Shown here piece after piece: positions 1,906 through 50,929 of a stretch of DNA of 62,833 nucleotides. Position 1 is the stretch's first letter; every line of letters starts with the position of its first letter. Position numbers and translations under genes: made by a program. Origin of the DNA: a virus (Duplodnaviria; Caudoviricetes); the IMG/VR virus record IMGVR_UViG_3300033144_005983, positions 1 to 62,833 of that record; one strand, given 5' to 3'. The notes under the pieces are model-generated. The model was given only the letters and a program-made list of their open reading frames with translations. It made no database searches and was not told the origin of the DNA.

Positions 1906-4900
1906 ATGGCAGATCCAACAGAAGCTTTAAGTGGGACCAAAATAGATAAGCAAACTGGATTAACTAAAGATATACCAAATACAGTAAAAACAGTTAATAC
2001 CAGTGCAGATCCTACTGCAGCGCTTACTAATACTACGCAAGGATTAGAAAAAGTAAGAGCTAAACACTTACCTACTGATATAGATGTAGGAGGACAGGCG
2101 TACTCTCTTCAAAAACAAGGTTATGATACATTAGAAAGTTATCAAGAATATAGTGATGACTTAAGAGCTAATTTAGCTGCTCCAGATCCAGAGATGGCTA
2201 ATAGAATGAGAGCTGAACATCAAGGAGTTGGCGAACAACTTGGAACAGCTGCTTATCAATTACCTCTTAATATAGGTATGGGAATCTTAGAAACTGCTGG
2301 TATGATCGGAGATTTCCAAAACTATTTAGGAATGTTTGGAGTTATAGATACTGATTATGACAACTGGTTATCTAAATCTATGCGAGATGCAAGAACAGGT
2401 CTTGCAAAATGGGATCCTATTTATAGAGAAGCTCCTCAAGATGTATGGTCTCCTACAGACTCAGCATGGTGGATAGATAATATATCAGGATTAGTTGAAT
2501 CAGTAGTAGAGTTCGGTGTAACAGGTTTTGGAGTAGGTACAGGTCTTAAAGCTGGAGCAAAAGCTATAGGAATGGCTGCAGCAGCAGGTAGACTTGGAGC
2601 AGGAGCTGCTAATGTAGCAGGAAAAACAGCAATGGGGCTTCAGAAAGGTACTCAATTAATGACTGCAGCTAGTTTAGCATACTCAGAAGGAGTAATGGTA
2701 GGTATTAATGTATATGATACCGTTTATAAAGAATCTTTAGCTGCAGGTATAAAGAAAGAGCAAGCTGAAAAGAATGCTGCTAATGCGGCAACTACTACAG
2801 TTAGAATGAATATGCTTAATACTGCTCTTAATTATACAGCAGTAGGACAACTCTTTAAATCAACTAAATCTTTAAGAAATAGTGTAAGTAACGGATGGAA
2901 TAGGCAAACACTTAAAAGTGGACAAAAAGAAAACTTCTCAGAGTGGTTAACTAGACTTAAAGGAGAACCTAAAGTAATGAAACATCCAGGTATACTTAAA
3001 AAAGTAGGTACACTAGTTAAAGAAGGTTCTTTCGAGGCTGCAGAAGAATTGGTGAATGAAATATCTCAAAGAGAAGGAGAATTAGTAGGAAGAAGAGAAT
3101 CAGGAATTCTTTTACCAGAAGAAAAAGATTCAGATTTTGGAGATAGAGTACTACATGCCGCAACTTCTCCTGAAGGAACACTAGCTATGACAATGGGATT
3201 TATTGGAGGAGTAGGTAATACAATGTTTCTAGGAGGAGTAGATAAAGGACATAGAGCATATCAAAATAGACAACGAGCTAAAAATGGACAAGAAGCTCTT
3301 AAATCTCCTGAAGAATTAGTATCTGAATCCTATACTGCTGAACTAGAAGGACTTATAGATAAAGCAGAAAACCTTGAAAAAATAAATGATAGTCTTTTAG
3401 AAGCAGTAGCTGCAGGAGATGTGAAAAAGATAAAAGCAGCTCAACAGGCTTTAGCTTCAGAAAGTTTATTTTCAGCTTTCCAAAACGGAAGTCCTGACAT
3501 GATGATTGCAATGTTGGAAGAAATTGAAGGCATAGACGATACTACAATGGGACCTGACGGTCAAACAGATGCAGAAAGAGAGGGACTAGAAACAAATAAA
3601 CAATCTAACCAATATTATAAAAAAGTAGCGAGACAGAAGTTAAATGATATAGGTGAACTTCAAAATGATTACGAAGCTGTAATGGATAAGTTCTGGATGG
3701 GAGACCAAGAAACTATGAACTATGCCAGTAAAGTATTTGGCTATAAAGTTTTAATGAAAAGTGCTAAAAATACTTTAGAAGGCTCCGAACAAGATCTAGC
3801 AAAATTTGAATCTCAATTACAAGAAAGACTAACTAATGCGGGTTATGAAGGAGCTCCTGCAAGCTTAATAGAGACTTTATCAGACTATGATGCAAGTACA
3901 GAGGCATATAACGAAGTTCTTGCAGATATTAAAGCTATTGAAGCTATGTCAAGTATGCAAGATGGCAGAACAGTTTATAAAAAAGATAGGGTCTCTTCAG
4001 CTGAACGAACTAAAATTAGACAAAAATACGGTATAAGAGCTACTGAACGAATAGATAAAACTTTAGCTCTTATTAAGAAACAATTTGAAGGAGTAGAAAA
4101 AGAGACCAGAAAAAAAGCAACTGCTATTACTGAAGTTTTTAAAACATTCAGTGAAGATATTCTTTCAGAAGATGGAGAAAGTTTATTAGAAGAATTAGAC
4201 TCACGATCAGGAGATTCAATTAGACAGATATATAATATATTCAAAGAAAGAGGAGAAGGAGAAACAGGAGAAACAAAAGCATTAAGAGATGCCATAGAGA
4301 AATTTAAAAATATTATAAATCTAACTAATGTAGATTATAACAATGTAGTTCAAACTAAAGCTTTTATTGAGCATCAAAAACAAATGGTTGAGGCTTTTCA
4401 AAAAGAATATGACGAGCTTAATAAACCTGGAGCTTTAAATAAATGGTTAAAAGAAGAAAGAGAAAACAAAAAGAATGCGGTTGAAAAAGAAGCTGAAGAA
4501 AGAGCTAAAACTAAAGCAACTGAAAGGGACAAGAAAAATAAAGAAACAGCAGAAAATATAGATAGAGAAGTACAAGCAGAAAATGAAACTGATTTGTCTC
4601 CAGATCCAGAACCAGAAAGAACCTATACAGGTAGTGAAGGAGAAGTGATTACTGAAGAGGAATATAATTCCTATCAAGAAAACCAAGAAGATAGTACAGG
4701 AACAACTCCTACAAAAGAAGATATAGACTCAGGAGAAACTACAGAACTAAACGAAGAGGATGAAAAGAAAGAGCTAGAAAAAATACTAGGAGATCAAAAA
4801 GAACTAGGATTTCTGAAAGAAAATGTACTTTCTTTTGCATATCTCTCACGAGAATATCAATTAACAGAAACAGGTCTTGAAGGTAAAAAAAGATTTACAA

Positions 4901-7900
4901 CATCAACAGGTGATCAAAAAGAAGGAGCACTTCATAATGATTTAGAATCTCATACTAGATTTCAACCAGGAGATGGTCTTTATACAATCGAAATTGCTCC
5001 TAGCGCTGATGCTGAAATATTAACAGAAGCTGAAGTTTCTAAAGGAAAACCTAAAACTACTACATACGGAGAGTGGAAAAAAGATAAAACAGCTGAAGAG
5101 CAGGCCCAAGGAGTTCCTTTAGTAATTAAAGATGCTAAAGGAACTATTGTAGCTTATATCCATGATGGAAGACCTGCCATAGAAGACGGTAAAGAAATAG
5201 TAGATACTAAAGGAGACCCAGTTTCTACATTTGTTTATAGAAGAATAGCACAAAAAACTGAAGACAATGGTGACAATTGGGCAACTCAAACAGAAAAACT
5301 AAAAAGATTTAGAAGAACAGCTATTGAGATGATCAATACTGGTCAAACACCTCAAATTGCAATTACTAGTAAAAGTTATGGAAGTATTATCCGTAATAAA
5401 GTAAAAGGAGAAGTTACAGAAGCACAAGTAAATGATGTAATGGGTCCTAATGTTCAAGTAGGAGTTTCTATTAATGGTACTCTTATGAAAGGAGATACTC
5501 CTATGAATGGACTAGCTATTGGAGGAGAAATTATAAATGATGGTGATCTTCCTAATGGAGCTGTATATGTAATCTTACCAACTCCTGTTGAAGGAAAATA
5601 CTTTGCTGCTTATGTTAGAGCTCCACAAATAGGCGAAATAACAGGCATAAAGACACAATCTACCGAAGTAGATGGAGATGCTTATGCAGGAATGGTAATG
5701 TTAGCTATAGGGATTCATTTTAAAACAATGGCTAATCAAAACTTAACTCCATCTGAAGAAAATGTAGTCCAAAAAATAAAAGACCACATGGATGGGTTGG
5801 ATATTACAAAAAGTGGATACGACTTAAAGAAATTTGTTTCATATTATGTAGTAGATAGGGCTTTTGATAAAGAAGGTAAAAATGCACAAAAAGGAAATAG
5901 AACTAAACCAGGCTATGGCCAACTCCATATAAGAACAGATGACGAAGGAAATCTAAAAACTATTAAATATGGCAGAAAAGAAACAGATCAAACTACAAAC
6001 ATTTCAAGCTGGAAAGCTTTTGAAGACAAAGGACAAGGTCTACTAGATAGTCTTAATGCAACACAACTTTCTGTTAAAGGAGAATTTTTAGGAGTAGAAG
6101 ATGATGTTAATATTCCTATACCAATAGATAATGGAGATGGTACTTATAGCATAGAGACAATCGAAGGAGCAGGTAATGAAATGACTACAGGCTATGAACA
6201 GTTTGTTAAACAAAACTTGAAAACAAAGCTAAAAGGAGAAAAAGTAACACTTTCTGATGGAGTAGAAGAATGGGTATATTTTGATCAGCCTGTAATATCC
6301 TTTACACCATTAACTGACACTCCTCCTAAAGACACTACCAAAGACCCAGAAGAACAAGGAACACCTCCAAAACAAGATCTACCTCCAGATATTGACCTAA
6401 TTCCTGAAATAGACTTAGATCTTTTAGATCAACTAGGAGAAGAAGGAGATGAAGATGGAGGAGTTAAACTAAATGAAATTGATCCTGAAGCAATCGCAGA
6501 AGCAGGAAAATTATTTGATGAACAAACACGAAAACTAAGAGATGAAGGAGAAATTGGTCAAGAATCTCCTGCTATTTCAGATCCTAATGATAGATTAAAT
6601 AAAATTATTCCAGGAGCATTTGTAGGAATGGATGGTAAAAAATTAGTTCAAGCAGCTGATAGTATCTATACATTAATGCTTAATCACTATGATAAAGCTG
6701 TAGGAAAAGGAAAAACTCCAAGTGCAGATAGTTTATTTAGCTATGCTCTACAACAATTAAAATCAAAACAAGGAATATATGGAATTGCTCTTAAACCAGG
6801 ATTCACAGTAGAAGCTCTTCTAGCACAACTAAAAACTGCAGGCAAATCAAAAGCATATTTAAATAATATAGAAGAAGCCTATTCTATTATTATAAAAGAT
6901 GACAAAGGTAACATTGATCTGGATGCTAATAGAGAAAGAGCTAAAGAATTTGGAGTAGTCATAGATAACTTTGACGGTCTTAAAAAGTTAGTAATTGAAA
7001 AATTAGGACGAATTGGAATTAAAATAAATGACAAAAAGTTATTAGAGTATATATATGAAGGAGAAGAAGCTCGAGAAGAATTAGTAGATATAGAAGTTTC
7101 TGATGGACTTACTGAAAGCTATGCGTCTAAAGCTAAATTAAAAACTGATTTAGGAAAAACAGCTCCATGGCAAGTAAGAATTCTTTTTTCAAGATTTCCT
7201 AAAATCAAGACAGCGATTAAAAACGCAAAAGGAGATTATGTATATACAGAAGAAACTAATTACTTAGGAATGAGAACCTTCATTAATTATGAAGATCTAT
7301 ATAATAACTTACTAAGTATTTTAGTTAATAAACCTGAAACATTTCCCGCTATAATTAATGCAATAGACAAACATGCAGAAAATACTTTAAATCCTCAATT
7401 GATTTTCTTAGCAGGATTTCTTAAGAATATAGATTTAAATCCAAAGATTTTACAACCTAATCAACTTAAATCTCAATTAGTTGTAGCCTTTCCTGCCAAT
7501 GCAGAAGTTCAAAGAGTAGTAGCACAGATTACTCCTGATAAAAACGACGGAGGTGGAAGTATGGGTTCTAAACTTATAAACTTTAGTGGAGATACTAGAA
7601 ATGATACTAATCTAATTATTAGTCAATGGGAAAATAACTTAGCGTCTAGTACTGGTGAAACAGGGCTTATTAGTGAAATAGGGGGAAAACTATTTATATC
7701 TCCCACTAAAGCAGCCAATGTTAAAATGATCTATGAGCAGAAAGCCAAAGAGCTTTTAGCTATAAGAGAAGGAAAAGATGATATTAAACGCTTTGGTAAA
7801 AAATTAAATCCAGAAGAAAGAATAGCGGAAATGGCTAGTGGTATTCAGGATATATTTAAACTACTTGGTATAGAACTTTCGCATCCTTTAGCTGTACAAC

Positions 7901-44839: not shown

Positions 44840-45143
44840 TCATATTCTTTTTAGCCTGAGCATACTTGATTGGAAGCGCTAATTCTGGATTCCATGGATG
44901 TTTAAGTAATCCTTCTTCTTCGGATGTATCTTCAGCTTGCATTAAAAGAATAGCTTCATGATCAAGTCCCCATAGAACTTCATCATGTGATAATGTTATA
45001 GCACGTGCTAAATCTATATCAGGGTTATTTTTTACTATAATAAGTGCTAGTAACACTACTTCAGGTGCTAATTTATATTTGGATGCTTCTTTAAGCACAC
45101 CAATAACAACTGATAAAGGATCTATTTCTTCGAGTTCTTTCAT
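44829..45143 (-). CDS. Hypothetical protein
   Basis: 104-aa ORF. Confidence 0.7.
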   Translation of the reverse strand: MKELEEIDPLSVVIGVLKEASKYKLAPEVVLLALIIVKNNPDIDLARAITLSHDEVLWGLDHEAILLMQAEDTSEEEGLLKHPWNPELALPIKYAQAKKNMNDE

Positions 45144-45174
45144 TTCATCGGTTTTAAAGGTAAAAAAATAAAAA

Positions 45175-45865
45175 GTGATAGGTATAGCTTGAGATTACAG
45201 CCCTATCTGGTCAGTCTTTAGTTAGCTTATTTCCATCCTGTCAAGGTGGTTACTAACATATCCACTCTGTTTGCACAAAGTAACTGCCAATGGCGATTGG
45301 TAAAGCCAATCATTCTTAACGTCATCACCTACTCAAATCATAATAAGTTCAATTATAGGACGGCCATCCCATTATTGACCTTTCTGATCCAAACAACAGC
45401 TACCTTGCGAGTAACTGAAGCACTATGTTCACCGAAGTGCATAGTATTAGCCATCTTTCGATGAATAACGCCAAAGTAATTTTGCTCTCTTTTTGAAAGA
45501 CTTCCCAATTGAATAACAGCTCCTTTGGATAAGCTCCATTCTCTTTTGAAGAACAGAATACTTAACTGTTATTTGTAATGCTATCAACATCACGGTACAG
45601 AGTTATACTCAAGAGCATATCGTTGTACTGAAGTGTACTCCTCCTAGACTGATAAAATCTGATCGGAACCACCCCTTGCAAGCTTACCTATTGTCATCGC
45701 TGACTCAACTCTGATTGGGCATCAGAATAGAAACGCTAAGGATTTCCCCATTGTTTCCGTCACTTGGATGTTTAGATTGACCATATTGCTATGGCAACAA
45801 AGAAAGAGCTCTATAACCCTTGCAGTGTCTTTATACTCTATTGCTAGAGTTATCGCGCTAAACCG
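45175..45865 (-). ncRNA. Large ornate structured RNA, GOLLD-like (~690 nt)
   Basis: No credible ORF. Many minus-strand tetraloop hairpins: ACUCUA-GCAA-UAGAGU, CCAUA-GCAA-UAUGG, CAUC-GAAA-GAUG, CAC-UUCG-GUG, ACUUUGU-GCAA-ACAGAGU. The 3' end GCUGUAAUCUCAAGC resembles GOLLD 3' ends as I recall them, and is followed by a U-run. Adjacent to a tRNA-like gene. Confidence 0.7.
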
Positions 45866-45870
45866 CGTAG

Positions 45871-45950
45871 TGGAGATGGATGGAATCGAACCATCGTCTT
45901 GAATGTGCTCATAATAAGCCCTGCATTCAGTCAATGCCTGAATCATCCCC
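45871..45950 (-). ncRNA. ssrA: Minimal tmRNA: tRNA-like domain only, no mRNA-like/tag domain
   Basis: GGGGAUG/CAUCUCC acceptor stem with G3-U70 and A73; stemless D-loop AUUCAGGCAUUGAC; helix UGAAUG/CAUUCA; GAC; T-arm GAUGG-UUCGAUU-CCAUC. Confidence 0.8.
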
Positions 45951-46288
45951 ATAATTTATAAAGTTACGATATTGTAACTTACATTCCTATATGATAAAGA
46001 TAAGAATATTCAGTGCATCCTCTAGAAGATACAACTGAACATACCTTACCTATAAAAAGATAGCCCACGGAGCTTATGTCTAATGCATCAGACATTACTT
46101 CAATGTGCAGAGTGTCCCAGGATTACGCAACTGCATTCCTATTCCCCTTTTGTTTGGCTTTAATGATATTTGACTGTGCAAATACCAAAACCTTTCTATT
46201 ATTATAAACAAAAGCACTCTCTTTTTACTGTATACCTGGTCGTCATACCATATCGACCAAAGGTAATTGCTAATACTGTTAACAATAA

Positions 46289-46338
46289 CGCCAGTAGCTT
46301 ACTGGATAGTTACGAGGTTTTCGAAATCGTAACAATAC
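46289..46338. repeat. 50-nt double-hairpin motif, copy 1
   Basis: Second copy at 48744-48793; three compensatory base-pair changes. Confidence 0.85.
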
Positions 46339-46507
46339 GTTTTCAATCTTAAGGCGATTGAATAAATTTTCTAGTCTCCGTCTTTTCATACTCATGCTAA
46401 AACCTTATTGTATGTAACGCTTTACATAAATATATCTTCGTTCTCTCATCAATACAATGAGCTTTTTTAAAAGATATAACCTAGACAATGTAAACAGAGC
46501 AACTTGA

Positions 46508-46624
46508 TTACATTCCTTGACTTGCTCCATATAAAAATAAAGCAAGTATAGTTATTGGGTTAGCTATCACAAATAATGTAATAACTACTACCCAATACAA
46601 ATACTTATTTCTAATCTTGATCAT
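46508..46624 (-). CDS. 38-aa membrane peptide
   Basis: MIKIRNKYLYWVVVITLFVIANPITILALFLYGASQGM; ATGA overlap. Confidence 0.5.
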   Translation of the reverse strand: MIKIRNKYLYWVVVITLFVIANPITILALFLYGASQGM

Positions 46625-46815
46625 ATCTTTATTCTCTTAGATGGTGACTTTTCTATTTCTAGTTGCCAACATAAAAATGGTAAAATAAAAATAAATTCAA
46701 GATCTCTAGGATCTTTTTGGAAACATATTCCAAAAGCTAATCCCCAATAAAACTCTCTTTTAAGAGTAATCTGTCTATTATTAATAGACGCATTTATTAC
46801 AGTTTTCTGACTCAT
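46621..46815 (-). CDS. Hypothetical protein
   Basis: 64-aa ORF with ATGA overlaps on both sides. Confidence 0.6.
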   Translation of the reverse strand: MSQKTVINASINNRQITLKREFYWGLAFGICFQKDPRDLEFIFILPFLCWQLEIEKSPSKRIKI

Positions 46816-47024
46816 AAACTATCGGTTTTAAAATTGTGTGAATCAATAAAATATCCATGAAGATCTTCAAATTCTTCTTGCGATATACTCAATACTCCTG
46901 TTTGATCAGGAAGTTTAGGACTTGAATGCTTAACTGCTTGTTTAGCAGTACCACATCCAATTCCAATAAACATTAGGATGACAACTATCTTAGTCATTAC
47001 TTCTACAATCTTCACTGTAGGCAC
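46812..47024 (-). CDS. Small lipoprotein-like protein
   Basis: Hydrophobic signal ending IGIGC; the true start may be the downstream Met (MTKIVV). Confidence 0.55.
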   Translation of the reverse strand: MPTVKIVEVMTKIVVILMFIGIGCGTAKQAVKHSSPKLPDQTGVLSISQEEFEDLHGYFIDSHNFKTDSL

Positions 47025-47241
47025 AAGCCATACATATGTGCATAAATAAAAGAATAAAAGATAGACCGCACCAAACTCCAGCTAATCCCTGAATTTCATG
47101 CATATATTCCCATCCAAATAAAAAACCTATTATAATAGCTAGTAGTTTACCAACTATAACAACAGAAAATGGTGTGCTTAATAAAATAAGCGATACTTTA
47201 AAGACTTCATTGAAGTCACGGTTTTTGCTATATCTAGCCAT
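46990..47241 (-). CDS. Two-TM membrane protein
   Basis: Two hydrophobic segments. Confidence 0.65.
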   Translation of the reverse strand: MARYSKNRDFNEVFKVSLILLSTPFSVVIVGKLLAIIIGFLFGWEYMHEIQGLAGVWCGLSFILLFMHICMACAYSEDCRSND

Positions 47242-47274
47242 GTGTGTGTGATTTAAAGATTAAAAATTAAAAAA

Positions 47275-47526
47275 TTAATACATTACTATACCATTAATAG
47301 TTATTTCAACTGGACCTTTAATGCCCAATCTAGTTTTATTTTGGTATACATATTTACCCACAATTAATTTAGCGTACACGGGGTTATTTGCACATTTAAC
47401 ATATTCAGTCTCATTATCAAGACTAGGATTCCATCCAAACTTTTTCCCATTTGCATCAGTAATTGTTGCAAAATCAGGATACACGTCAAGACCAAACCCT
47501 TTCACTTTACTTTGTCCAAATTGCAT
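47275..47526 (-). CDS. Hypothetical protein
   Basis: 83-aa ORF preceded by the shared leader motif. Confidence 0.7.
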   Translation of the reverse strand: MQFGQSKVKGFGLDVYPDFATITDANGKKFGWNPSLDNETEYVKCANNPVYAKLIVGKYVYQNKTRLGIKGPVEITINGIVMY

Positions 47527-48134
47527 GATTAAAAAATTTAAAGATTAAAAATTAAGAAAATATAAAAGACAAAGAATATAAGGGACTATTGCCCTCATAC
47601 CTTTGTAATTGCTGTTTTAATACATTAACAGGATTACATTGCGATTGTTTTCTGTTAATATTACAAATAAGCACAGCAAAATCGACAGTATTCTAATAGA
47701 ACACTGACCAACAAAAAAACATTTGTTGTCTGCTTACTCACTCTCATAGTTACGACTTGTGGTTTCCCTTCGTGTGACTGACATGGTATTTGTCCCGCTA
47801 AAGATTGCTCTTATAATAGCATCGAGTCATCGCATCATTATAATCTCTTATAATCCGCTCGTCTGGGTGTAATGATATAATGTACACTATATCAATACTA
47901 ACTTTCCCTCACACACTAGTCCTTTGGCCCGTTGGGTCTTGAGATGGTAACAAACTCGAGATTCTTTCGTATCGACTTCGCTTGTGCTAATTGTAACATG
48001 TGCTATAATATATAACACATATGCCTATTGGTTATAGGACTTTATTATTATTACAATGGAGTGCTTTACTCACCACGCATTTATCTCCAACCCTTGGTGT
48101 AGGGCTTCAAAGTAATAATTATATTTTGATTGAT

Positions 48135-48338
48135 TTAAGGTTCAATCACTCCCACTTGATGGACATCTTCGTATGGTTCATCTCGTGCAATCCCACCATA
48201 TTTAGCGTAGACAGAGTCTCCGATAATATAGTATTCTGCATAAGACTGACAACAATCGCCACCACAGTCCCATTGCCAATCATAACTGCTATATTCACAA
48301 TAGCGTTCTGCTTCTTCATAAGATTTGAATTTTTCCAT
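48135..48338 (-). CDS. Small acidic Cys-rich protein
   Basis: YCE..WDCGGDCCQS; A-rich leader. Confidence 0.6.
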   Translation of the reverse strand: MEKFKSYEEAERYCEYSSYDWQWDCGGDCCQSYAEYYIIGDSVYAKYGGIARDEPYEDVHQVGVIEP

Positions 48339-48394
48339 AATAATACATTTAGTTAATAATTAGTTATTATTAAATGTAATGAAGAAGGTATCTT

Positions 48395-48543
48395 AAGAGC
48401 ACCGTGCCAGAACGTCATAAATTCATGGTAAAAACCACACATCATCTGTTCCTTAAATTGCACGTCTTGCTTGGCTCTCGTTATTTTAAAGAGCACCAGG
48501 CACAAGTATTTCTACTTGCGTTATTCCTGTCTTGCTTGGCTCT
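48395..48543 (-). repeat. Tandem pair of stem/internal-loop elements with variable inserts
   Basis: Plus-strand AAGAGCACC...GTCTTGCTTGGCTCT at 48395-48478 and 48489-48543; inner stem differs but keeps pairing. Confidence 0.8.
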
Positions 48544-48743
48544 AATTTTTTAAGGAACGATTCTGTTATCATTTATGATTTACTTTATCTAACAGAGTGA
48601 GCTCTTACTGATACTCCATCTCCTGCGCATACATCACCATGCGATACCTAATTTAGGTTAATAAATGTTTACTATCAGTTCCTTATTCTAATGTATGCTT
48701 ACGCATCATTAAATATGTCTACAACTTTACTGATAGTTGTCAT

Positions 48744-48793
48744 CGCTAGTAGCTTACTAGATAGTTATGTGGTTAATGAAAACATAACAATAC
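48744..48793. repeat. 50-nt double-hairpin motif, copy 2
   Basis: Ungapped homologue of 46289-46338. Confidence 0.85.
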
Positions 48794-48997
48794 ATATCTT
48801 TCACCGTTTTTAGTTTAACGCCAAAGACGATGTCTGGAAAAATGCGTTAGTTGCGGGATAACAGCTATAGGTAATTACTCCTACACCACTCTACTTCTAT
48901 AGTTGCAACTATGAGTAGTTAATATCCCCAGAGACTCAATGGAAGCTCCTTTGCAGGTCCATGAGACAATTAAATATATCTTTGAGATAAACAAAGA

Positions 48998-49162
48998 CTA
49001 AATATTAAAGTCTTTGTCATCTACTTTCATGCTATGATTTGGTTGAATAGGACTAGCATCTATCCTATGAATAAACTTAAGCCTTGCCAACTGCTCTTCA
49101 AGCTCTTTAACTTTGGCAATTTGCTCCTTAAGTAAATTCTTTACTATAATTAATTCAGTCAT
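48998..49162 (-). CDS. 54-aa coiled-coil protein
   Basis: MTELIIVKNLLKEQIAKVKELEEQLARLK...; too short for the ORF track. Confidence 0.55.
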   Translation of the reverse strand: MTELIIVKNLLKEQIAKVKELEEQLARLKFIHRIDASPIQPNHSMKVDDKDFNI

Positions 49163-49782
49163 CTTTACAAGGTTTAGTTAATAGATATGAATAAAAGTTT
49201 TACCTATGCGTCATACCAAACATGACTGCAGACCATGCGCTTATTACCACGCTGATACTTACATAGGATTACAGATACTATTGCTGCTCAATATCGACGA
49301 CTCCTTTGGTGAAAGCCAAGGTCAATAAAGTTCACAATAATTGTGCACTCAAATATGCTATGGATTTACTGACTAACTCAATGTTAGCCATAACCATGCA
49401 TACGGCACTCCTGGTTCGTCCTCTGTTAAGGAAGAACTATATTGTAATGTTCTAATCATTACTACTATGTAATGTTAGGCTTATCTTCAGATCCAATAAG
49501 ACTTTGTGCTATAATATAAGTATGTTATGAAAACATAAAGGTAGGAATTATAGCGATAAAGTGATGAATATGTACTGGAATACACATTCAAACACTTTTA
49601 TAAATTTCAGACTAAAAAAAGCAATAGTTTTTTTAATTCAGCTACGAGATTCAACTCGGTAAAGTAAAAAACAGTCTGTAAAGAACAACAATAATCTTCC
49701 AAGGAAGATAAAAACACGTTTTACCCTGTAACGTGTAAGGAAGGCAGTTTGCGACATACCTAGGTCAAGCAGTAGTAGTCTA

Positions 49783-50097
49783 CTAGCCAGTGACAGGCTC
49801 CACGCTGTGCATGAAGGGTTTCCCTGTCTCTTTGTCCACGAGCTTCTCAATGAGAGCACCGAACTTGAAATCTCCCTTCAAGGTAGAACCTTGCTTGAAG
49901 TATTTCTGATTAGGCACGACATCACCGTTAATCTCTTCAGTACCATAAGCCTGTAAAAGACCGATACCATCAGAAGATTGACCAATGAAGCCAATGCCGT
50001 CTTCTAGTTCGTGAAGAACAACTGAAGCTAGCGTTAACCAAACTTTGCCATTCTCACTCACGGACGACTTGATTATTTTCGGATTTGTTACAATCAT
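49783..50097 (-). CDS. First gene of the minus-strand early block, hypothetical (start re-called at MIVTN)
   Basis: 104-aa ORF, visibly more GC-rich than neighbours. Confidence 0.7.
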   Translation of the reverse strand: MIVTNPKIIKSSVSENGKVWLTLASVVLHELEDGIGFIGQSSDGIGLLQAYGTEEINGDVVPNQKYFKQGSTLKGDFKFGALIEKLVDKETGKPFMHSVEPVTG

Positions 50098-50508
50098 GTG
50101 AAAACAATTTTCTGCAAAAAGGTGCAGTACCACGGGAAGTATTCCCCTGACCATCACGTACCCACATTATAGGGGGTACCAACGGCTCAACTACAATTGG
50201 GGATGACTTGATGGAGAGACCCTTACAAACTCGAAAATATAAACAAAAATTTTTTTTTGGAATTTTTTATACTTAAATTGCAAAACTGATTAGAGAGAGA
50301 AACTAACACAACATATCAGGACACCCTACCAAGAAAACAAAATGGTTAAATGAAGTAGGGCTGCTACGCCATCATCTATTATTACTACTTAATAAAAACT
50401 TATGGAGTTCTTCACGTACTGAAGTTTCAAATGGGAATTCAAAATCACATGCGGGGGGGATAAGGTGATCTATCTACGAATGTAACTATAATTAAGGTTA
50501 TATAATGT

Positions 50509-50539
50509 TTTGTATTATGCTCTAAAGTGAGTAAGTTTA
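50509..50539 (+). promoter_or_regulatory. Possible Bacteroidota-type sigma promoter for late genes
   Basis: TTTG-19 nt-TAAGTTTA versus consensus TTTG-(19-21)-TAnnTTTG; one mismatch; AT-rich background. Confidence 0.35.
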
Positions 50540-50560
50540 CAGAAACCTATCATTAATATA

Positions 50561-50929
50561 ATGAAGAGAGAAAAAAAAGAAAAAGTTCCAAGGAGTAAGT
50601 TCTATCACAAGTATCTTCAGATGATCAATGTCATACTCCCTGAACCTTTAACTTCTAAAGAGATAGAGATTCTATCTGCCTTTATGGAACTAAAAGGAGA
50701 TCTAATTGAAGAAGATAGATTCGGTACCCAATGTAGGAAGTATATAAGGGATAAGTTTAAGTTCAAGTCTTATTCGAACTTAGATAATTATATAAAGTAT
50801 ATGAAACAGAAAGGAGTTCTATTAAAGGACGAAGACACTGGAAAGCTTTATATAAATAAGAGAATAGAAATACCAAAAGATACAAAGGATATTGAATTGG
50901 TATTTAAATTTCAACTAGTTGATGGGTAA
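50561..50929 (+). CDS. Putative winged-helix DNA-binding protein
   Basis: LTSKEIEILSAFM..NLDNYIKYMKQKGVL. Confidence 0.65.
   Translation: MKREKKEKVPRSKFYHKYLQMINVILPEPLTSKEIEILSAFMELKGDLIEEDRFGTQCRKYIRDKFKFKSYSNLDNYIKYMKQKGVLLKDEDTGKLYINKRIEIPKDTKDIELVFKFQLVDG

Follow-up and report, generated by a model that had tools for sequence, protein, structure and literature searches.

Phages carry giant structured RNAs, GOLLD (RF02032) among them, for which cage structures have been solved. The available text of a cryo-electron microscopy study of GOLLD and ROOL reports covariation in variable hairpin stems, some highly conserved loops that bridge chains and, for GOLLD, a less conserved 5′ region (10.1101/2024.12.08.627333). 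For the hatchet ribozyme (RF02678), the accessible part of Li et al. (2015, PMC4604424) gives the position of the cleavage site and describes P0 as being without sequence conservation. Here, we analyse IMG/VR record IMGVR_UViG_3300033144_005983 (Duplodnaviria; Caudoviricetes), a stretch of 62,833 nucleotides (nt) that is referred to in its full length as the window. Two dispersed copies of a 50-nt motif had been noticed in it, and we find that the fold of this motif belongs to a longer unit encoded on the minus strand. On balance, this unit probably serves long untranslated phage RNAs as a portable 5′ module.

The module resembles GOLLD in being phage-borne, in lying in the same block poor in open reading frames (ORFs) and on the same strand, at the six mappable places 475–765 nt upstream of the match to the GOLLD 3′ domain, and in carrying fixed loops on covarying stems. 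In contrast, the Rfam model of GOLLD leaves the module uncovered, although published full-length GOLLD alignments may already draw it, and the module also heads non-GOLLD RNAs and hatchets. Its last hairpin takes the place of hatchet P0, a few nucleotides before the cleavage site, in two genomes (G001 and G009). Unlike P0, however, the module is highly conserved; it gives no match to the hatchet model, and most family members have no adjacent hatchet. As a covarying phage RNA motif of unassigned role near hatchet or pistol ribozymes, it is comparable to the RAGATH motifs, which are orphan structured RNAs from the vicinity of self-cleaving ribozymes, and to the unnamed candidates, 8,495 in number, that Fremin and Kyrpides (2023) reported from IMG/VR. 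It differs in having no Rfam 15 match at E up to 5, although it may be one of the unnamed candidates.

The original prediction of a new RNA motif agrees with these comparisons, since the structure matches no Rfam 15 family. Over positions 45000–50600, a search at E up to 5 returned GOLLD, a match resembling transfer-messenger RNA (tmRNA) and two noise matches, none of which overlaps either copy. A search of five other family loci, with E up to 1, yielded only a separate hatchet. No account of the motif turned up in the literature on phage structured RNAs and ribozyme contexts, supplementary alignments and tables aside, and the papers that match core sequence strings are, among the matches listed, unrelated by title.

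A covarying fold on the minus strand

On the plus strand, the 50-mers lie where they had been placed, at 46289–46338 and 48744–48793, and a repeat search returned them as a single two-copy family with 82% identity (41/50). Six of the nine differences fall in the two stems and form three compensated pairs, namely a C-G to U-A change in hairpin 1 as well as C-G to U-A and A-U to U-A changes in hairpin 2, and the other three are all located in the hairpin 2 loop. Direct reading of the sequence shows identical linkers in both copies. Both also possess the third hairpin that had been reported, formed by ATTGCTAA/TTAACAAT around the loop TACTG in copy 1 and by ACAACT/AGTTGT around TTACTGAT in copy 2. 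A 20-nt core with at most 3 mismatches occurs twice in the window compared with 0.01 expected occurrences, a number reached in 0 of 100 shuffles, and covariance models detect only these two copies in the 62.8 kb.

Relatives were gathered from IMG/VR with patterns derived from the window. Fixing the loops and linkers alone gave 19 stretches, and a pattern on hairpin 1 alone gave 102, some of them chance matches in coding sequence; hairpin 2, termed H2′ in the minus-strand reading (hairpin 1 and the third hairpin being H1′ and H0′), was constrained by none of the patterns. The 48 distinct 55-nt cores align with no gap at all. Read on the minus strand, 95.7% of the 624 cells of this alignment are paired and 7 of the 13 pairs change on both sides, resulting in a covariation score of 0.468 versus 0.201 in shuffles, none of which (0/500) reaches 0.468; slid controls are at most 51% paired. 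In H2′, 6 of 7 pairs change on both sides with 92.3% of the cells paired, and H1′ is paired in 99.7% of its cells, one pair being U·G in 25 of the 48 cores and U-A in another 22. Selection on a covarying structure is thus evident across the family, as expected for the functional fold that had been proposed.

A covariance model built from the 48 cores (R2) returned further homologues, with 99 matches in 100 loci (960,655 nt), of which 53 score at least 69 bits and 46 score 22–36 bits. Large contigs, up to 176 kb long, carry the element. Among 18 large genomes, all pre-selected for the pattern, 15 hold one copy and three hold two, and in four loci tandem units stand 81 nt apart. The element is far better conserved than its phages, as the portal is only 26–30% identical to that of the window in four of the five carrier genomes tested. 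In G001, whose terminase is 89% identical to that of the window, the orthologue of copy 2 adds two compensated pairs, and one position is occupied by A-U, U-A and C-G among copy 1, copy 2 and this orthologue.

The original prediction had read the fold on the plus strand, and on this point it has to be corrected. Throughout the family, 45 cells are G·U pairs on the minus strand, which are C·A mismatches on the plus strand, compared with no G·U cell on the latter, and the paired fraction drops from 95.7% on the minus to 88.5% on the plus strand. Based on this polarity, the fold belongs to the minus strand. H0′ of copy 1 shows the same polarity, with one position that pairs as G·U when read on the minus strand but is mismatched as C·A when read on the plus strand. 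The orientation of the neighbours points in the same direction: in 16 family loci, all eight Rfam RNAs (three hatchets, one pistol, three tRNAs and one permuted tmRNA) lie on the strand of the element, GOLLD and the local genes of the window share its minus strand, and the ORFs flanking family elements are mostly co-oriented with it. As a general lesson, a strand assigned from two copies can be set right by the G·U polarity of relatives.

The 50-mers turned out to be only the 5′ halves of a unit of ~85–125 nt, in which 5′-GUAUUG is followed by H2′ and H1′ and then by H0′, with an H-type pseudoknot as a further part of copy 1 (Table 1). Conservation sets in 1–2 nt before GUAUUG, and the 49 units compared share no sequence further upstream. 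H0′ occurs in six stem versions, all still paired, among nine relatives with one loop type. The pseudoknot is based on an alignment of 14 long forms (A6), in which its helices 4 and 5 are 98% and 100% paired and 3 of the 5 pairs of helix 5 change on both sides. Compared with the family consensus AGGN/NCCU, copy 1 has all four pairs of helix 4 swapped with complementarity kept, and it retains the UUU and AUAU linkers. For the short copy 2, the 3′ limit is tentative and follows from the minimum-energy fold, in which AUAUGU/ACAUAU form a closing helix. Copy 1 is present as a discrete block (46231–46349) between different flanks in a contig of run X1, and the stretch with copy 2 is skipped by contigs of runs X1 and X6.

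In many members, the tentative closing helix P1 is followed by ACCA, and in one subtype by ACAA. The resemblance of this helix and ACCA to a tRNA-like acceptor end was downgraded to tentative. A tRNA reading of the unit was rejected, as ARAGORN at default settings calls none in 50 units, relaxed thresholds give inconsistent results and no Rfam tRNA match was obtained.

Table 1. Coordinates of the two module copies, their parts and the neighbouring RNAs in the window
Feature	Position	Strand	Details
Copy 1, full unit	46230..46338	-	GUAUUG, H2′, UAU, H1′, H0′, pseudoknot, tentative P1; R2 70.3 bits at 46288-46342
Copy 1, tentative closing helix P1	GUAU 46335-46338 with AUAC 46230-46233	-	sequence read against alignment A6
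Copy 1, H2′ (hairpin 2 of the original prediction)	46309..46333	-	7-bp stem, 11-nt loop UUUCGAAAACC
Copy 1, H1′ (hairpin 1 of the original prediction)	46291..46305	-	CCAGUA AGC UACUGG
Copy 1, H0′ (third hairpin of the original prediction)	46266..46286	-	AUUGUUAA CAGUA UUAGCAAU
Copy 1, pseudoknot	46238..46265	-	UACC-UUU-GGUCG-AUAU-GGUA-UGA-CGACC
Copy 2, short form without pseudoknot	48713..48797	-	R2 71.8 bits at 48743-48797; 3′ limit tentative
Copy 2, hairpins	H2′ 48764-48788, H1′ 48746-48760, H0′ 48721-48740	-	minimum-energy fold
GOLLD RNA gene	45135..45988	-	RF02032 211.6 bits (gathering score 150), match 45186-45573
tRNA-like insert, 83 nt	45868..45950	-	Rfam tmRNA 44.6 bits (gathering score 47)

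RNAs downstream of the module

Both copies are located at 45.1–50.2 kb of the window, a region with few credible ORFs that appears to be read leftwards, given its negative GC skew. Copy 1 stands at the head of a 1.2-kb stretch without ORFs, which holds an 83-nt tmRNA-like insert and then GOLLD. The GOLLD model (416 positions) aligns to its matched part only and leaves copy 1, 716 nt upstream of that match, uncovered. Positions 45135–45869 are 95% identical to G001 compared with 72–86% for the flanking genes. RNA-library contigs are found over 45241–45804 with summed depths of 100–280.

Six of 24 genomes searched for GOLLD have a match. The element precedes it on the same strand by 765 nt in the window and by 515, 548 and 550 nt in G008, G012 and G022, respectively, and in these three genomes conserved sequence is continuous from the element into the GOLLD-like match. 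Together with two whole contigs among further records, G037 and G045, with spacings of 475 and 563 nt, all six mappable places lie within 475–765 nt. A further 38 records fall into two groups. Of the 11 in which a UGUUGUUACCCUCAGAG block follows the element, 8 have a GOLLD-like match at 84–117 bits (gathering score, 150), whereas none of the 27 in the other group has one.

That other group (~35 loci) has a different conserved downstream RNA of ~300 nt that ends in UGCAGAGGGG and has no Rfam match. It is found 140–370 nt after H1′ in L083, L085, L090, L094–L097 and ~30 other loci, and consists of the block UUAAUGCACCAU, a hairpin CUCAC-UUCCCAAGG-GUGAG and a long helix CAGUUGUAA/UUACAACUG that encloses a variable insert, followed by AGUGCAGAGGGG. 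In L131 and L180, the end of this second RNA lies ~10 nt upstream of an element. Its domain between H3 and UGCAGAGGGG was considered as a hatchet variant and rejected, as the topology differs and no model matches.

Hatchet matches follow the core by 88 nt in G009 (81.5 bits) and by 26 nt in G001 (48.5 bits; gathering score, 51). H0′ of G001 occupies the position of hatchet P0, and the predicted C^U cleavage site comes 7 nt further on. Six of 50 further records have a hatchet, and overall the count is 8 of 74 family records; the scan of 16 loci revealed a pistol in one of them. The hatchet-like ribozyme of G001 (88011–88268, equal to L234 212–469, plus strand) has a very large P4 insert and opens a 1.2-kb segment that is absent from the window.

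Role of the module and competing explanations

Each of the two 50-mers thus forms the 5′ half of a compact structured RNA module, which is encoded on the minus strand in two copies. The module starts sharply at GUAUUG and continues with two hairpins that combine varying stems with fixed loops and linkers; the hairpin that follows them has a loop of the CAGUA type. In copy 1, the H-type pseudoknot comes next, and a short helix may close the whole fold. The module would be part of leftward transcripts from an ORF-poor, RNA-rich region. In its carriers, uncultured and mostly marine crAss-like phages, it is found once or twice per genome ahead of GOLLD or GOLLD-like RNAs, the ~300-nt RNA described above, or a hatchet ribozyme. 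Fold, strand, family and positions are shown by these data, whereas action as RNA, in the form of a portable 5′ domain of the large RNAs, is inferred. In all comparative respects the module is RNA-like, as judged by G·U polarity, pseudoknot, co-orientation and continuity with known RNAs.

Several observations weigh against this reading. The invariance of H1′ is partly a matter of ascertainment, because the search pattern largely fixed that stem. Strand asymmetry alone is no proof of RNA, as G·T pairs are tolerated in single-stranded DNA (ssDNA) too. In a crude energy test, the 36 nt after H1′ fold with −5.17 and −5.02 kcal/mol on the two strands and −4.18 kcal/mol in shuffles, which amounts to no signal, and the folding z-scores of the window copies (−1.5 to −1.8) are weak and alike on both strands. 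As the folding energies of the window are unremarkable, the case for the fold is made by the relatives rather than by thermodynamics. The closing helix P1, formed by GUAUU with AAUGC (AGUAC in a subtype), shows only G-C to G·U changes. Moreover, G001 and G002 carry a high-scoring GOLLD with no element upstream, so that GOLLD can do without it. The 519-nt segment that contains copy 1 in the window is missing from G001, though GOLLD is 95% identical there. No match to the long-form unit was found by blastn among 50,697 cultured-phage records, and the first 15 kb of Cellulophaga phage phi14:2 (NC_021806) are without the element (best match, 10.4 bits). Finally, transcription of either copy is predicted from sequence; an RNA-library run (X24), available as contigs only, has no contig on either copy, which is uninformative either way, and contains GOLLD-like contigs.

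Other searches of this kind were also negative. Neither megablast of 45500–49500 against cultured phages nor blastn of the GOLLD block gave a match. In a 596-Gb collection of bacterial genomes, the 19-nt pattern matched 45 times, close to a rough chance estimate and mostly in unrelated coding sequence, with L220 and L223 as the only family-like cases. In L223, a Mucilaginibacter contig from a metagenome-assembled genome, a family-like H1′ and H0′ (7771–7820, plus strand) directly follow an apparent tRNA or tmRNA 3′ end; the locus may belong to an integrated element. Clustering of 860 co-oriented ORFs near 85 elements left the ten largest clusters without an informative Pfam or PHROG match.

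What the portable 5′ module does can be proposed only tentatively. A folding, assembly or end-protecting domain is the role we prefer as a possibility; it is guessed from the fixed loops on covarying stems, which match the contact signature of GOLLD and ROOL. A bolder and rather unlikely version is a portable assembly module, in which RNA–RNA contacts of the fixed loops would nucleate or cap homo-oligomeric RNA particles, a feature that GOLLD-like cage RNAs and the ~300-nt ornate RNAs ending in UGCAGAGGGG would have in common. A candidate for such a contact is the H1′ loop: by a count made by eye, 47 of 48 cores have AGCU or AGUU as its tetranucleotide, which is self-complementary once G·U pairs are admitted. 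An equally bold alternative, a new class of self-cleaving ribozyme, is allowed by the data. The module provides an experimental handle on the giant phage RNAs. It marks the probable start of these transcripts, can be deleted or swapped, and is with ~110 nt small enough for probing, cleavage assays and structure work. Marine crAss-like phages keep a whole block of structured RNAs that comprises the module, GOLLD, tmRNA-like pieces and ribozymes.

Two rivals are live. The first, unlikely in our view, is processive antitermination in cis, as by the put RNAs that phage HK022 makes: while still nascent, the two-hairpin transcript would bind the polymerase and permit read-through of a long, hairpin-rich untranslated stretch otherwise prone to Rho-dependent or intrinsic termination. 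The put RNAs are likewise two-hairpin RNAs present in one or two copies, early in transcripts before long read-through. The element matches this picture in its one or two copies per genome, in its position upstream of GOLLD-like RNAs and, co-oriented with the genes, at the head of stretches without an ORF of at least 60 amino acids for ~150–1000 nt, and in having unpaired nucleotides fixed beside covarying stems. It has, however, no known sequence relation to put, to which the extra hairpin and the pseudoknot are foreign, and the role needs neither this pseudoknot nor tandem copies. Further, no downstream terminator pattern stands out in the window, a simple scan of which finds 7 terminator-like sites in 5.9 kb versus 2.5 expected, H1′ itself being one of them, and GOLLD occurs without the element in G001 and G002.

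The second live rival, processing or catalysis, we regard as quite unlikely. Here, the unit would be a new self-cleaving ribozyme or a trans-acting small RNA that is excised by flanking ribozymes or host RNases. The abutment of hatchets on its 3′ side in G009 and G001 is suggestive, as are the hatchets and the pistol elsewhere in the family, but direct adjacency is restricted to these two independent genomes. A self-contained fold with invariant junction nucleotides, a sharp 5′ conservation edge and tandem units would also be expected of a processed RNA, yet no Rfam ribozyme model matches the element at E up to 5 in the window or up to 1 in five other loci, and ARAGORN finds no tRNA in any of the 50 units. 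The precedent in the available text of PMC6765202 cuts both ways: new ribozyme classes were discovered through such neighbourhoods, and other structures beside ribozymes did not cleave experimentally.

A function at the DNA level appears improbable. An ssDNA initiation or priming signal, or another replication or recombination site including the edge of a mobile cassette, would be consistent with the strand on which the element lies, the would-be lagging-strand template if a fork departs from the GC-skew minimum near 50 kb, and with strain presence/absence breakpoints at the unit edges. No transposase or HUH gene, however, lies beside the window copies, and we know of no DNA priming or recombination site with a pseudoknot. 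Beside the Rep gene, a place at which priming signals would be expected, 18 Microviridae contigs carry an exact 19-nt match on the gene-sense strand, but these contigs derive from one metagenome and amount to one independent match compared with a rough 1–4 chance matches. Moreover, the covarying helix of the microviruses is a different, longer hairpin, and the model scores there are low (20–25 bits). In these contigs (L003–L020, ~5.5 kb), the match lies in a hairpin just after the Rep gene and adjoins a long alternating purine-pyrimidine, GC-rich palindrome; a free position covaries (CAAGUA/UACUUG), and the match may be due to chance or represent a shared site.

Phage N4-type promoter hairpins for the virion RNA polymerase (vRNAP) lie on the template strand upstream of the transcript and consist of a 5–7-bp stem with a 3-nt loop. 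The original prediction had offered such an ssDNA promoter as an alternative, a reading that is now disfavoured and that we judge highly improbable. The 6-bp stem and 3-nt loop of H1′ have the N4 format, and few copies per genome in a phage with a virion polymerase complete the likeness. The selected strand is nevertheless the coding strand and not the template, as the G·U polarity and the co-orientation with genes and RNAs indicate, and the fold comprises several helices and a covarying pseudoknot. Conservation, in addition, extends downstream of GUAUUG into the would-be transcript. No shared −35/−10 or Bacteroidota-type box was found upstream of the 49 units, and a sigma-70 scan stays at shuffle level (22 versus 25.5). 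According to the available text on the crAss-like phage phi14:2, its virion polymerase transcribes ssDNA well, but its early transcripts have no common upstream motif, and the virion polymerases of such phages are two-barrel enzymes and not T7-like (10.1101/2020.03.07.982082). The absence of the element from the first 15 kb of phi14:2 argues in the same direction.

A short conserved plus-strand peptide, likewise disfavoured, is almost certainly not the explanation. Both copies lie in the same frame of small ORFs (46170..46352, 60 amino acids; 48691..48813, 40 amino acids) reading ASSLLDSY; 47 of 48 family members keep this frame uninterrupted across the core, and three of the window differences are synonymous in it. 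However, the median stop-to-stop length is only 45 amino acids, all six differences between the G001 orthologue and copy 2 alter an amino acid, four of them keeping two base pairs, and the ORFs run opposite to the local gene direction and GC skew.

The surrounding genome

The window is a 62.8-kb linear fragment of an uncultured virus with an estimated completeness of 67%. The DNA polymerase and helicase are encoded in a block on the minus strand and terminase and portal on the plus strand, and the GC-skew minimum and the strand switch both lie near 50.2 kb. A single ORF of 7,315 amino acids (1906–23853, plus strand) presumably encodes the giant virion protein of crAss-like phages. Terminase relatives of 70–90% identity occur in many IMG/VR contigs. 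The runs that cover most of the window are labelled as seawater metagenomes, with shares of up to 0.48, and contigs of run X1 cover 27 of its 30 bins.

The 83-nt insert between copy 1 and the GOLLD match closely resembles the T-arm and acceptor of tmRNA at its 3′ end, and ARAGORN calls nothing in it. It is a recent insertion, since contigs of runs X1, X6 and X16 have TT instead and G001 is without it. In phi14:2 (L229, NC_021806), the one relative that has been studied, a comparable long early intergenic region (4031–4502, plus strand) is described in the available text as being transcribed above most genes (10.1101/2020.03.07.982082). This region gives a tmRNA match of 46 bits, one bit below the gathering score, and a weak permuted-tmRNA match.

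Downstream of copy 2, an ORF-free stretch contains a pair of 23-nt repeats (48464–48486 and 48529–48551) that are 87% identical and 65 nt apart. A further ORF-free segment, 47565–48043, is 82–85% conserved in G001, where its counterpart is duplicated with one copy at each contig end, 88.5% identical to each other. Positions 47894–48038 are touched by RNA-library contigs.

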